From an uncultured Clostridia bacterium (lineage in GTDB: Bacteria; Bacillota; Clostridia; Christensenellales; UBA1242): a stretch of 54,355 nucleotides of DNA. A program made the position numbers and the translations under genes. The notes below the pieces were generated by a model, which made no database searches, was not told where the DNA came from, and saw nothing but the letters and a program-made list of their open reading frames with translations. Positions 29,001-54,355 of the stretch are shown here, piece by piece (the stretch's first letter is position 1; every line of letters starts with the position of its first letter). Location of the stretch: assembly GCA_944383335.1 (NCBI GenBank), contig CALWPD010000004.1:1-54355 (forward strand). Reading direction: 5' to 3'.

Positions 29001-29624
29001 CTTGGATATGTTAATGTTCATGCAATCGAAGATATAAAACTGTTGTCGGAGCGCTATGATGCACTAAAAGAACAGGCCGATGACCTTGAAAAAGCAGAAC
29101 AAAATCTTTTGCAAGTCATAGAAGAGCTCTCGACAGAGATGACGCAAAGATTTAAAACAGAATTTGACAAAATTAATGAGCACTTTAAAACTACGTTTAG
29201 AGAACTTTTTGGTGGTGGTAATGCAAGACTTGAGTTAACTGATCCTGATAATCTTTTGGAATCTGGAGTAGATATTGTTGCTGAGCCACCAGGCAAAAAA
29301 TTGCAAAATATAACGCTTCTTTCTGGTGGAGAAAAGGCGCTAACTGCCATTGCAATACTTTTTGCTATCTTAAAGTTAAGACCAATGCCATTTTGTTTAT
29401 TGGATGAAATTGAGGCGGCACTTGATGATTCAAATGTTGGTAGATTTGCCGAATATCTTAGAAGATTCAGCAAAATAACTCAGTTTATTGTAATAACGCA
29501 CAGAAAGCCCACAATGGAACTCGCTGATTGTTTGTATGGTGTTACAATGGAAGAAAAAGGTGTATCAAAAATGGTTAGTGTCCAACTTGCTGACGCACTA
29601 AAAAATATTGAGGAGAGTAAATAA
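26031..29624 (+). CDS. smc: Chromosome segregation protein SMC
   Basis: GFKSFAD, GPNGCGKSN, hinge GRATFLP/GSMTGG, LSGGEK, LLDEIEAALD. Confidence 0.98.
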   Translation: MNFKQIELAGFKSFADKTVIKFDSGITAIVGPNGCGKSNVSDAIRWVLGEQSSKLLRGSSMQDVIFNGTEKRKSMSYCEVTLIFNNTDRYFNYDNDEVAITRKLYRSGESAYLINRTPVRLKDIVNLLYDSGIGKDGYSIIGQGKVDEIISSKPENRRAIFEDAAGISKFKSRKIDAERKLERTRDNLSRAGDILTELERQMGPLKKQAENAKIWLELKDRLKDLEVNTYVYSYNNANATKKQINTKLSAIEEELIQRQQDLSACTKKYDANTEEVNNIDANINANHESILHLTVELEKQSGEANVIRERIANLNETKSKIGIDLLNSTNIIQKDSAELKFKKDKYDGVVENLQKLNLSYEEISNDYLRVMDELSMHEDQTQDSQQKMIDALDKLTDIKANFSKYKAERDMLKDNLVELSNRLEDVNKSVTDKTKTKDEVANEVVKLKAKQDEAITNLNSARAKQDQLKTDIQTLQEDRYRISSKVQVYENRKTLLEEMQKEYDGYSYAVKKLLKESEKNSEVKSKMVGVLASLITVPEKYETAVEIALGNAVQNIVTFDEQNAKDLIYFLKTNEFGRATFLPITKLRPRAIAQEDAKALTFKGCFGIASDLISYGNNIKNVISNLLGTTIIVDNLDTAIAISNKTKLSYKIVTLDGDVINPQGSMTGGSKKHEVANLISRDREIKTLNIELTKLKKELEQKTSDIFKSQKEYEELKFEINKLFDVKNTTEINYAKENEKLASFTSILNNEIEEQKNLESQYKSTSIRIETLTRELESIDELESTAQENRTSANKFIAERQAKYQELSKKRDELNENMTRVKVEIASLEAQKISFEQDFDRLNEEIRVNNALKVNFQNDIDKLDKTIYEAENIIKVQIETQANQESKNKLNKLREEMQNYESKKQSLQSEIQKLNDQKMQIMDNITKLNDKRTNAQHQLEKVDIEIEQMQERIYEEYSLTYTSCQQFVRADFDMDKAMPEIAEVKREISKLGYVNVHAIEDIKLLSERYDALKEQADDLEKAEQNLLQVIEELSTEMTQRFKTEFDKINEHFKTTFRELFGGGNARLELTDPDNLLESGVDIVAEPPGKKLQNITLLSGGEKALTAIAILFAILKLRPMPFCLLDEIEAALDDSNVGRFAEYLRRFSKITQFIVITHRKPTMELADCLYGVTMEEKGVSKMVSVQLADALKNIEESK

Positions 29625-30520
29625 TGGGAATATTTAAAAAAATTTCACAAGCACTAAAAAAAACAAAGGAAGCTTTAGCAAGGAAATTAGATGCTTTACT
29701 TTCTGGTGGTGAGATTAATGATGACTTTTATGAGGACTTAACGGACATTTTAATTTCTTCTGATATTGGCTTTGAGTGTAGTGAAGAAATTGTCGATAAA
29801 CTACGCTTGTATGCAAGAAAAAATAAAATTAGAACGTCAAATGAAGTAAAAAATGCTTTAAAAGCTATCTTGATTGAAATTATGGAACAAGCACCACAGG
29901 TTGAAATTAAATTCCCTGCAATAATTACAGTTGTTGGTGTCAACGGAGTCGGAAAGACCACAACTATTGGTAAACTTGCGAAATATTTTAAAAAGCAGAA
30001 TAAAGAAGTTACACTTGTCGCTGGTGATACATTTCGTGCAGCTGCAAGCGAACAACTAACAGAGTGGGCAAATAGAAACAAGGTGCGTATAGTTAAACAT
30101 GAAGAAGGCACCGATGCCGCTGCTGTTGTATTCGATGGTGTTTCAAGTGCTAAAGCGAAAAAAACTGATGTGCTTATAATTGATACAGCGGGAAGACTTC
30201 AAACAAAAATCAATTTAATGGAAGAACTTAAAAAAATAGACAAAGTTATAGACAAAGAATATCCAGAGGCAAATAAATATACATTTATCGTCTTGGACGC
30301 TACCACTGGACAAAACGCACTTAGTCAGATTAAAAATTTTAATGAATATGTAAAAATTGATGGTATTATATTGACAAAACTTGATGGAACGGCAAAAGGC
30401 GGAGTGGTATTTGCTATTGCAAAAGAACTTGAACTTCCTGTCGAGTTTGTTGGAACAGGTGAAACTATTGAAGATATTGATACCTTCAATGCAACTGAAT
30501 TTGTTGATAATATCATTTAG
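29624..30520 (+). CDS. ftsY: Signal recognition particle receptor FtsY
   Basis: GVNGVGKTTT, DTFRAAA, DTAGRLQ, TKLDGTAKGG. Confidence 0.98.
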   Translation: MGIFKKISQALKKTKEALARKLDALLSGGEINDDFYEDLTDILISSDIGFECSEEIVDKLRLYARKNKIRTSNEVKNALKAILIEIMEQAPQVEIKFPAIITVVGVNGVGKTTTIGKLAKYFKKQNKEVTLVAGDTFRAAASEQLTEWANRNKVRIVKHEEGTDAAAVVFDGVSSAKAKKTDVLIIDTAGRLQTKINLMEELKKIDKVIDKEYPEANKYTFIVLDATTGQNALSQIKNFNEYVKIDGIILTKLDGTAKGGVVFAIAKELELPVEFVGTGETIEDIDTFNATEFVDNII

Positions 30521-30536
30521 AATAGTTTTTAATACA

Positions 30537-30576
30537 AAATACACACATTTGATGCACGCTTGTGTGTATTTTTTTT
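30537..30576 (+). terminator. Terminator of the plsX-ftsY operon
   Basis: AAATACACACA...TGTGTGTATTT followed by a T-run. Confidence 0.75.
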
Positions 30577-30602
30577 ACGCAATTTTACATATTTTTACAA
30601 AT

Positions 30603-30629
30603 TTCGACACCGTTCGACACCGTTCGACA
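30603..30629 (-). promoter_or_regulatory. Three tandem perfect Spo0A boxes (TGTCGAA on the minus strand), 10-bp period
   Basis: TTCGACA-ccg-TTCGACA-ccg-TTCGACA. The 0A-box consensus is TGNCGAA. Confidence 0.7.
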
Positions 30630-30681
30630 CAGTTAAATATAAAAAATCACCAAACTTTTCAAAAAAATCTTGTTAAAATAC

Positions 30682-30714
30682 TTGACAAGACTAGGGGGGG
30701 GGGGGGGGTAAACT
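30682..30714 (+). promoter_or_regulatory. sigmaA promoter with a G15 homopolymer in the spacer (phase-variable candidate)
   Basis: TTGACA (30682-87), AGACTA, G15 (30694-30708), TAAACT (30709-14), then AGGAG SD and ATG 30732. Confidence 0.85.
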
Positions 30715-30731
30715 ATTTTTAGGAGTAAAAA

Positions 30732-32555
30732 ATGAAGAAAAAAGGTAAGTTGTTTTTAAGTTTATGTACACTACTTTTCAGTTTGGGAGTAATGTGCTTT
30801 GGAGTGTACAGTGCTGTACAAGTACAATTCAATGTAAACGGTAGTATAAACTATGTCGCACCAGATGCAGAATTTAACACTGCAATATACACGTCAGCAA
30901 TGCTAAGTTCAGAGGATTTAATAAAGAGTAGTGCTGATAATTACAAAACTTTAGGCATAGGGAATATACCATTACCCCTAGCCAAAGATGAAAATGGTGA
31001 GCCATATATTTACACCACACAGGCTTCATATCCAGAAAATGAGGGAGAGCAACCTGAGTACAGTTATGCAGAGTTTAATGATATAAACTTAGATTTTAAC
31101 GATTCAAATTGTAGGATATATTACATAGTAATAAACATTAAACCAACCGAAATTATGGATAATTATACAGTACAAGCAACAATAGAAAATAATACACCAA
31201 CAGGGAATAACTTAGGACATTATGAAACAAACACTGCACTAACTTTCACCGAGGCCAATGTAGGACAAAATGTAGTGATTGCATTTTGGGTAAAAGATTC
31301 ATCACAAGAGATACTAGCCGCCAACTTGGATATTACAATCACATTAACAAATGTTCAAGCGAGCGTAAATGTGGAGCAGATAACAGTTGGGAAGACTCCA
31401 GTATCCGGAACACTAACTTTAACCAAAGACACGGCAGTGAAACTTCCAACCACAAATATCAAAATTCAGCCAAATGCTAATCAAGAAAATAAAAGGACAG
31501 AGATAACACTTAATCTAAAGTCATCACTACCTAATTACGCTCGAATGTTTGTAAACTACAATAAAAGTACAAATACAGATATCAAAGTAAATGCATCATC
31601 ACTATACCTAAAAGATAGTGGAGTTTACAAGATATATGTAGATAACTACTCTAGTTCTGCAGTTGATTTGGATGATTTAAACATTTCAATCCTATTTGAT
31701 GTACAAACAGAGTTATTACACTATGACAATGATAACCAATATTATTATGTAGAAATGGGAACCCAAATGCGGGATGGTGAGACTAAAAATGAGTATTTGA
31801 AATGGAAATTAGTTGGAGTAGGAGACGGGGGTTATGATACCTTTGATAAATTTACAGATTTTGATTCTGCAACTGGTAGACTGGGGGCATTTGTTTTAGA
31901 GAGCTATATAGATGTGAATAGTCCCGACGGGTCGGGGAGAAAATTGAATGAGGTTGCATTCGCTAATTATTATAATAATATGTCTACGCATTTAGAAGAA
32001 GAGTGGGTAGGATATCAACAATCAGCCAATGATTATGGACAAAGTACAGTTGCAAGATATTTGAATGGAGTGGATGTATATAAAGGCTCAATAAGTGGTG
32101 ATAATATTTTCATACCAGAGCAAACTATTAATACATTGGTATCAACATATGCTAGAGAACCTTCAACTCCATCTAAGCCTGATCCTTCTTCACATTATTC
32201 CAATATGTATACTGATTTTAATATAGATATAGAACACGATTTGGTGTATCAATTAATAGAAGTAAGACAGACATATGAAATATGTAATGAAAACGGAGCT
32301 TATTATCCACCAGTATACGTGGGAATTGTTGATAACTATTTTTGGCTTTTAAGTTACAAAAATGTATCTACTTTTTTTGATAATGACAAGCAAAGAATGT
32401 GGCATTCAACAGATTATTGGTTAAGTTCTCCTGCTGGTGGTTCCGATTATAGTGAACAACTAGTTGATTCAAATGGACAACTTTATGAGGATGGATATGA
32501 TGCTTCATCAATTTTAACAGTTCGTCCTGCGTTTTGCATGCCATTACAAAAATAG
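30732..32555 (+). CDS. Secreted/surface protein with a C-terminal DUF6273-like domain
   Basis: Signal-like N-terminus (MKKKGKLFLSLC...FGVYSA) and a beta-rich stalk. C-terminal 'YVEMG...LKWK...Y..STV..YLN...FWLLS...YWLSSP...V..NG...VRPAF' pattern. Confidence 0.75.
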   Translation: MKKKGKLFLSLCTLLFSLGVMCFGVYSAVQVQFNVNGSINYVAPDAEFNTAIYTSAMLSSEDLIKSSADNYKTLGIGNIPLPLAKDENGEPYIYTTQASYPENEGEQPEYSYAEFNDINLDFNDSNCRIYYIVINIKPTEIMDNYTVQATIENNTPTGNNLGHYETNTALTFTEANVGQNVVIAFWVKDSSQEILAANLDITITLTNVQASVNVEQITVGKTPVSGTLTLTKDTAVKLPTTNIKIQPNANQENKRTEITLNLKSSLPNYARMFVNYNKSTNTDIKVNASSLYLKDSGVYKIYVDNYSSSAVDLDDLNISILFDVQTELLHYDNDNQYYYVEMGTQMRDGETKNEYLKWKLVGVGDGGYDTFDKFTDFDSATGRLGAFVLESYIDVNSPDGSGRKLNEVAFANYYNNMSTHLEEEWVGYQQSANDYGQSTVARYLNGVDVYKGSISGDNIFIPEQTINTLVSTYAREPSTPSKPDPSSHYSNMYTDFNIDIEHDLVYQLIEVRQTYEICNENGAYYPPVYVGIVDNYFWLLSYKNVSTFFDNDKQRMWHSTDYWLSSPAGGSDYSEQLVDSNGQLYEDGYDASSILTVRPAFCMPLQK

Positions 32556-54093: not shown

Positions 54094-54355
54094 GTCATTC
54101 TGAGCGAAGCGAAGAATCTCTAACCATTGAGATCCTTCGTCAGCCGTCAAGGAAGCAATTCTCAGGATGACACACCACACATTGTCATTCTGAGACGGAC
54201 CAGAAGAGCGTCGACCAACGAAGAATCTCATGGGGCCCTTCGCATACTCTCAGGGCGACTAAAATATCGTGGTTCCAAAAAATACTCGTATAAAGTTTGA
54301 CTATACGAGTATTTTTCGTATATACTAAACATGACACATGAGGCCCTTCGCATGG
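54094..54355. repeat. Mosaic array B of GTCA/CGTC-type palindromic repeats, running off the window
   Basis: Plus 54094-54120 (GTCATTCTGAGCGAAGCGAAGAATCTC), minus 54129-54171, plus 54184-54229, minus 54232-54259, palindrome 54277-54316, and a further unit starting at ~54340. Confidence 0.88.

Follow-up and report, generated by a model that had tools for sequence, protein, structure and literature searches.

A poly-G tract in the promoter spacer of a predicted surface-protein gene family of gut Clostridia: a candidate slippage switch

Slippage contingency loci are textbook devices of a few pathogens (Neisseria, Haemophilus, Campylobacter, Treponema and Mycoplasma), and phase variation in Clostridia is known from DNA inversion. 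In Bordetella fim a poly-C tract in the promoter region sets the distance to an activator site and modulates transcription through its length, and the tract of the Mycoplasma vlp genes is a poly-A run. Neisseria meningitidis porA and Treponema pallidum tp0126 have a poly-G tract inside the -35/-10 spacer and are expressed best when that spacer is 17 bp, according to the passages of PMC7864442 on these promoters. The same passages describe the treponemal tprE/G/J/L genes, whose tract length modulates transcription although the tract, overlapping or adjoining either the start site or the -10 box, leaves the -35/-10 spacing unchanged. As set out in the relevant part of PMC2268961, spacer indels switch transcription ON or OFF in Mycoplasma hyorhinis vlp, M. 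arthritidis maa2 and M. mycoides vmm, and in the parts of a 2025 phase-variation review that bear on the class (PMC11868660), Clostridia appear only under invertible promoters. The open-access full texts searched contain no account of promoters that phase-vary through repeats, either in Clostridia or among uncultured gut Firmicutes; the mechanism itself is known, and the lineage would be new for promoter-spacer homopolymer switching.

The locus described here, upstream of a gene that we call P0001, lies in a 54,355-base window, which is the whole stretch of DNA analysed and an entire contig (C4) of the assembly of an uncultured Clostridia bacterium. It resembles porA and tp0126 in placing a G homopolymer in the sigma-70-type spacer of a gene for a predicted surface or outer-membrane protein; 17 bp, the spacing at which those two are expressed best, is also where the promoters of its own genome peak. 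It differs in that porA and tp0126 are single loci of diderm pathogens with ~8-11 G, one step from ON, whereas here at least 11 loci share a cassette with 9-19 G (up to 21 in relatives), the P0001 spacer is 4 bp too long, and the carrier is one of the uncultured ~1-Mb gut Clostridia. With vlp, maa2 and vmm the locus shares a (here predicted) surface-protein multigene family in a genome-reduced bacterium and a conserved 5′ region for each member. Unlike vlp, the repeated base is G, the loci are dispersed rather than clustered, and in place of lipoproteins with tandem-repeat tails the genes encode products that combine a signal peptide or N-terminal helix with an N-module of ~200 aa and with C-termini that are DUF6273-like or BspA-type leucine-rich repeats (LRR). 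T. pallidum tprE/G/J/L and Bordetella fim are likewise paralogous surface-protein genes with a G/C homopolymer in the promoter region, although here the tract sits cleanly between an exact TTGACA and a -10-like hexamer. The invertible promoters of Clostridioides difficile share the bacterial class and the outcome proposed here (stochastic ON/OFF expression of surface and signalling genes) and differ in relying on site-specific DNA inversion, whereas the P0001 promoter has no bracketing inverted repeats besides a small dyad.

Promoter anatomy and upstream neighbourhood

The P0001 gene encodes 607 aa and occupies positions 30732-32555 of the forward strand, with its ATG at 30732. Reading towards it on the same strand, an exact consensus -35 box (TTGACA, 30682-30687) is followed by the hexamer AGACTA (30688-30693), by a G15 homopolymer on the non-template strand (30694-30708), which is the candidate slippage site and has the same length in contigs from two sequenced samples (X1 and X2, below), and immediately 3′ of the tract by a -10-like hexamer, TAAACT (30709-30714), which matches TATAAT at 4/6 positions. 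A Shine-Dalgarno sequence, AGGAG (30721-30725), ends 6 nt ahead of the start codon. The first-pass annotation had described a G15 tract in a 21-bp spacer that G11 would bring to 17 bp, by far the longest G/C run in the window and directly ahead of the Shine-Dalgarno sequence and ATG of a gene, and all of this holds when read from the sequence at 30682-30714 and onwards to 30732; the next longest G/C run in the window measures 6. As far as sequence can place it, the tract would thus lie in the -35/-10 spacer of the P0001 promoter, and G15 is long enough to slip (~8 or more).

We take TAAACT to be the probable -10 box. Five further loci have this hexamer behind their tract (C21:9664, C24:116, L005, L028, where it stands 1 nt past the tract, and L075). 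With the usual distance of 5-9 nt between a -10 box and +1, the P0001 transcript would start at ~30720-30723, at or within AGGAG, and its leader would be only ~10-12 nt long, whereas the leaders of the paralogs at C24 and L028 are ~34 nt longer. This short predicted leader is one reason why the assignment of TAAACT as the -10 box stays provisional.

The region directly upstream of the tract is conserved. A MAFFT alignment of 11 cassettes of the genome finds ~45 nt upstream of the tract conserved across copies, and at P0001 the conserved promoter cassette (30656-30693) combines a block rich in A/T with an imperfect dyad and with the -35 box and its AGACTA tail. The dyad (30668-76 / 30682-90) has 9-nt arms that are complementary at 8/9 positions and lie 5 nt apart, the right arm including the -35 TTGACA. 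Most copies of the cassette have a similar layout of dyad over -35 box. Such a dyad may be the operator of a dimeric regulator and a second layer of control.

Farther upstream lies an ftsY-like gene (29624-30520, forward strand; SRP receptor; Pfam SRP54 6.9e-76, SRP54_N 7.8e-11), a neighbour that stands outside the switch. Behind it, at 30536-30580, a 12-nt perfect inverted repeat (30536-47 / 30561-72) forms a terminator-like hairpin with a predicted RNA fold of -13.8 kcal/mol (z -2.7), followed by U8; a simple terminator scan did not list this hairpin, which from its sequence should insulate the P0001 gene against read-through. Three tandem 10-nt units of the TTCGACACCG type occupy 30603-30632, 50-80 nt upstream of the -35 box. 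The units are one helical turn apart, and a string of two of them is unique to this position in the genome; they may form a protein-binding array specific to the P0001 paralog. A promoter scan listed no further promoter-like site on the forward strand of the gap between ftsY and P0001, and an Rfam scan of the gap found no family at threshold. Its two sub-threshold hits, RT-6 (19.3 bits vs 46.7) and ncr952 (14.7 vs 100), were taken as chance.

Recurrence of the cassette in the genome and the genus

The assembly (G000) holds 698,518 bases in 30 contigs at 32.8% G+C and is estimated to be 75% complete. Its G/C runs fall from 100 of length 5 to 7 of length 6 and one each of lengths 7 and 8; extrapolating this decay, ~0.06 runs of 9-19 are expected, and 12 are present. 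An exact TTGACA stands no more than 16 nt upstream of 11 of these 12 tracts, always with the G run on the sense strand. Nine of the tracts have the start of a P0001-family gene within 300 nt downstream, recognisable by the shared N-terminus M.KK.KLF.SL..L...CFGVYSA..V.Y.V.G.I.Y, and behind the other three the contig ends after 32-66 nt; none of the 12 precedes another kind of gene. The promoter-spacer placement first proposed for a single locus is thus repeated: 11 of 12 long tracts follow an exact TTGACA, 9 lie ahead of one secreted-protein family, and 11 of 19 congeners have the same arrangement. As in the vlp family, paralogs of one genome, here nine, each have a tract-bearing promoter in a conserved 5′ region.

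The tract is common in the family without being universal. Among 16 family genes with readable upstream sequence, 9 have at least 9 G, one has G8, 5 have no tract and one (C1:49168) has an interrupted version, in which 18 nt of G-rich but interrupted sequence separate TTGACA from TAAAAT and which looks like a counterpart that does not slip. In a relative, locus L031 (G019) has the interrupted tract G7-AGA-G7. Judged by their sequence, C1:49168 and L031 look like ‘locked’ versions of the switch.

A repeated element of ~70 nt occurs at the end of the window (54270-54355) and elsewhere in G000 (C3:67951, and on the reverse strand C19:12605, C21:9881 and C6:5328). It consists of a hairpin and then a promoter-like TTGAC-17-TATA-like stretch, and related stretches lie in the long 5′ leaders of poly-G family genes at C6, L009, L011, L021, L033 and L036. 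It could be a second, tract-free promoter or a dispersed hairpin repeat.

Seven of the 12 tracts lie less than 130 nt from a contig end (contigs C3, C12, C14, C21, C22, C23 and C24), and some contig-end tracts of relatives run into poly-A-like junk (L008, L012, L066, L080). Both would be expected if the tracts were sequencing or assembly artefacts, either two-colour Illumina poly-G or mis-joined contigs. We consider this explanation highly improbable. The breaks at the tracts are explained by the repetition of the cassette and of the conserved gene starts, which seem to rank among the main reasons why this and related metagenome-assembled genomes are fragmented, and the tract has the same placement relative to TTGACA and a -10-like hexamer in 14 independently assembled genomes, a reversed control pattern giving none. 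At P0001 itself, the tract stands 30 kb into a 54-kb contig and is flanked on both sides by unique sequence, and an 18.6-kb contig from sample X1 bridges it; its interior position, this bridging contig and the genome-wide excess of long runs together indicate that the tract is real sequence, far beyond chance. The longest tract of the genome (19 G, C23:6701-6719) lies ahead of a family gene, has G/T-rich sequence upstream in place of a TTGACA, and stands 62 nt from the end of its contig, which finishes in a poly-A run. This copy may be degenerate or misassembled.

The pattern TTGACA-N1-8-G≥9 was found in 14 of the 41 genomes searched, namely the P0001 genome, 11 of 19 congeners, one of the 5 that represent other genera within the family and one of the 16 that represent other families within the order, and the reversed control pattern in 0 of 41. 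Genomes of the genus measure ~0.9-1.4 Mb. Collecting the tracts of at least 8 G from the P0001 genome and from the retrieved loci of the 13 other genomes gave 73 distinct tracts, 69 of which have an exact TTGACA 0-10 nt upstream. A family gene follows 41 of them, another gene 8 and no gene 1, with too little sequence to tell in 23. The -10-like hexamer, 0-6 nt past the tract, is TAAACT, CAAAAT, TATACT, TATAGT, TACAAT or TATAAT. Six of the 8 non-family genes, mostly from the other genus represented by G023, encode a lipoprotein-type signal peptide as read by eye. At L025, L086, L087 and L088 (G023, another genus of the family) and at L059 (G039), TTGACA-polyG-TATAAT precedes lipoprotein-type signal-peptide genes, and L087 has two tandem copies ~1 kb apart, each with G14. 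A scan of metagenome contigs for the cassette, a gap and TAAACT returned 110 stretches, which we regard as chance matches because none has a G-rich gap.

Spacer length, tract-length change and predicted state

In the genome as a whole, an exact TTGACA is followed by a hexamer with at most one mismatch to TATAAT 46 times at a spacer of 17, versus 7-24 times at each of the other spacers between 10 and 28, and exact TTGACA/TATAAT pairs occur 10 times at 17 versus 0-3 times elsewhere. This peak indicates that the canonical spacer optimum applies here, which makes the 21 bp of P0001 off-optimum and the earlier call of a promoter ‘currently predicted OFF’ a fair one, in the sense of OFF or low. An automated best-promoter call for family genes that lack poly-G proved too noisy in A/T-rich DNA for a clean spacer histogram, so the genome-wide peak was relied on; several of these promoters in relatives can be read with 17-18 bp.

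Measured to the nearest -10-like hexamer, the poly-G spacers of the genome are 15 bp (C3, C13), 18 (C14:67, C22), 19 (C24), 20 (C21:9664, C6), 21 (P0001), 22 (C14:4468) and at least 22 (C21:62, C12), and those of the six TAAACT loci are 17 (L075), 19, 19, 20, 20 and 21. With a heuristic choice of the -10 box, the 51 tracts that have enough sequence give spacers of 15-27, with 3 at 17 and 32 at 19-21. The non-G and G parts of the spacer are weakly anticorrelated (Spearman -0.34 over these 51 tracts, whose rows are non-independent and whose -10 boxes are heuristic). The -10 choice matters: reading TATCCT directly behind the tract in place of a TATTAT 5 nt further on, for example, turns a spacer of 20-21 into one of 15-16. 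Either most loci rest OFF, or for this class of promoter we have misplaced the -10 box or assumed the wrong optimum; going by the assembled consensus, most loci would share the OFF prediction unless the -10 assignments of some subfamilies are wrong. At P0001, G15 is four slippage steps from the predicted ON length of G11, whereas classical switches are one-step.

We favour the reading that the poly-G spacer is a slippage switch of the P0001 promoter, of the porA, tp0126 and vlp type and shared across the family and the genus, and give it a probability of roughly 0.7. G15 would be the variable part of a sigma-70/sigma-A promoter (TTGACA, spacer, TAAACT), the sole recognisable promoter of P0001, within a cassette of A/T-rich block, dyad, TTGACA, 1-9 non-G bases, G9-G21 and -10-like hexamer that precedes at least 9 paralogs in this genome and, in most congeners, members of the same family. 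Replication slippage in the G run would lengthen or shorten the -35/-10 spacer, and the promoter would fire strongly only near 17 bp (G11 at P0001), its activity being poor with the 21 bp of the assembly. Random switching or dimming of every family member, independent of the others, would produce a population with mixed surface phenotypes. That slippage at the P0001 locus occurs at a useful rate and that transcription follows tract length are steps which we infer.

Between near-identical sequences of relatives, such tracts do change in length. Loci L051 (G019) and L036 (G005) are 99.7% identical over 3,032 aligned nt; apart from 7 substitutions they differ by just one indel, of 2 G within the tract (G12 vs G10). 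Among the tract pairs with at most 6 mismatches per 100 flanking bases, 3 of 4 differ in length. For the P0001 locus itself, a search for sequencing runs listed 10 DNA runs, all in the form of assembled Logan contigs, and no RNA run. An 18,611-base contig from X1, possibly the source sample of the assembly, bridges G15 with no difference. Sample X2 comes from another study and shows 0 differences over ~2 kb, which marks it as the same strain; its 338-base contig contains G15 and ends 2 nt past the tract, which it does not bridge by 31 nt. In X3 the contig ends at 30692, just short of the tract; because the cassette is repeated, such breaks are uninformative on length. Two paralogous tracts, read from loose contig ends, have the lengths of the assembly (G9 in X2, G12 in X3). 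Modal lengths look stable between these samples, which is neutral to mildly negative for slippage, and the exact length of 15 at P0001 rests on short-read assemblies only. Of the slipped-strand control proposed in the first-pass annotation, the architecture, its recurrence, the 17-bp optimum of the genome and a change of tract length between relatives stand, and a change at P0001 does not appear in the two samples that cover it.

The same observations bear on the idea that the tract serves as a fixed piece of architecture, for instance as a spacer that is rigid or A-like or, together with the dyad, as a regulator site, whose paralogous copies drift slowly in length with no useful switching, regulation being conventional and perhaps exerted by a dyad-binding protein. 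The constancy of G15 in both covering samples and of the two paralogous tracts fits such an element, as do the clustering of spacers at 19-21 in place of a scatter, the conserved imperfect dyad that overlaps the -35 box and the presence of MutS in the genus. Yet general knowledge and the passages of PMC7864442 on tract instability have uninterrupted runs of 9-21 G as intrinsically slippery in all systems tested, the lengths span 9-21 while the flanks are conserved, and the sole indel in 3,032 bases of two relatives falls in the tract. Any static sequence would serve a fixed element, but 11 of 19 congeners retain pure G, and the interrupted versions (C1:49168, L031) are exceptional. We regard a fixed element as unlikely, and slippage as the preferred reading.

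Seventeen of the 20 genomes of the genus have MutS_V; the P0001 genome, at 75% completeness, gave no match. Missing mismatch repair as a cause of slippage was rejected for MutS on this count, and high slippage is not to be credited to its absence.

The protein family and what switching would mean

P0001 has no match in Pfam or NCBIfam. Its AlphaFold2 model (95 relatives; mean pLDDT 86.4, pTM 0.83) has a hydrophobic N-terminal helix (residues 3-27), followed by beta-sandwich domains and, at the C-terminus, a mixed domain, with no repeat tail. A Foldseek search of the PDB returned only weak matches to multi-beta-sandwich structures, the best three at E 3e-4 to 4.7e-4 with TM at most 0.15; pilins and an IgA peptidase appear only lower in the list, and no fold was assigned. 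No lipobox-type cysteine is apparent by eye in the N-terminus of P0001, which lacks the lipoprotein signal peptide and size-variable tandem-repeat region of a vlp-like product.

The family shares an N-module (residues 1 to ~210) that has no Pfam family and occurs in proteins of ~200 to 1,260 aa. A search of 1.84 billion representatives found it in 210 clusters at E ≤1e-3, with 20 matches in the P0001 genome and 1-16 in each of 18 of the 19 congeners. The C-terminal part varies with the member, being DUF6273-like in P0001, BspA-type LRR in others, including the paralog P0005 of the same genome, or of another kind; BspA-type LRR_5 matches P0005 at 5.1e-20 and P0002 at 1.2e-113. The nearest Atlas clusters to P0001 (score 0.93) have DUF6273 in 62% of members. 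P0001 does not match PF19789 (DUF6273) at E up to 1, its relative P0011 passes (30.5 bits vs a cut-off of 23.5) and P0009 falls below at 20.2 bits; P0001 is likely a distant relative of DUF6273 and not a demonstrated member. Structure and sequence predictions support a family of secreted or surface proteins, which would face the outside of the cell; the adhesin of the first-pass annotation is a guess. The combination of parts suggests that domains were shuffled behind a shared module for export and anchoring.

This modularity raises another way in which the run could act, as a recombination hotspot that shuffles the family or through DNA or RNA structure (a G-quadruplex, or an i-motif on the opposite strand), in place of spacer length. 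The shared N-module with differing C-terminal domains fits such recombination, and the cassettes offer homology for exchange; this may add to slippage and does not replace it. By our own reasoning a three-tetrad quadruplex whose loops are one base long would just fit into G15. With only 9-11 G, many of the tracts are too short to form one, and for this reason we set the quadruplex reading aside; an RNA structure is excluded by the position of the tract upstream of the predicted transcript, and the constant feature of the tracts is their position between TTGACA and a -10-like box. Action through structure or recombination alone appears improbable to us, and we return to the slippage reading.

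Taken to the level of the genus, that reading would describe a ‘phasome’ of about a dozen dispersed promoters per genome, with spacers holding 9-21 G and 2-4 bp past the optimum. Its members would be mostly silent by default, and slippage would turn on rare members, different ones in different cells; on top of this, the dyad that overlaps the -35 box may bring in regulation as a second layer. It would be the first phase variation by simple sequence repeats (that is, not by inversion) described in Clostridia, convergent with Mycoplasma vlp and Treponema tpr and arisen in a further host-associated lineage of minimal genome size. We consider this wider proposal an even bet.

On the practical side, the cassettes break short-read assemblies (7 of 12 tracts at contig ends), and the tracts would mark outward-facing genes in little-known organisms. 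Tract length per locus in deep reads would be a cheap and direct read-out of population dynamics in an organism that cannot be cultivated. A family-wide poly-G system in ~1-Mb commensal-type gut Clostridia suggests that slippage-based surface variation is a common solution for small-genome host-associated bacteria, and the pressure behind switching could be host immunity, phages or neighbouring cells.
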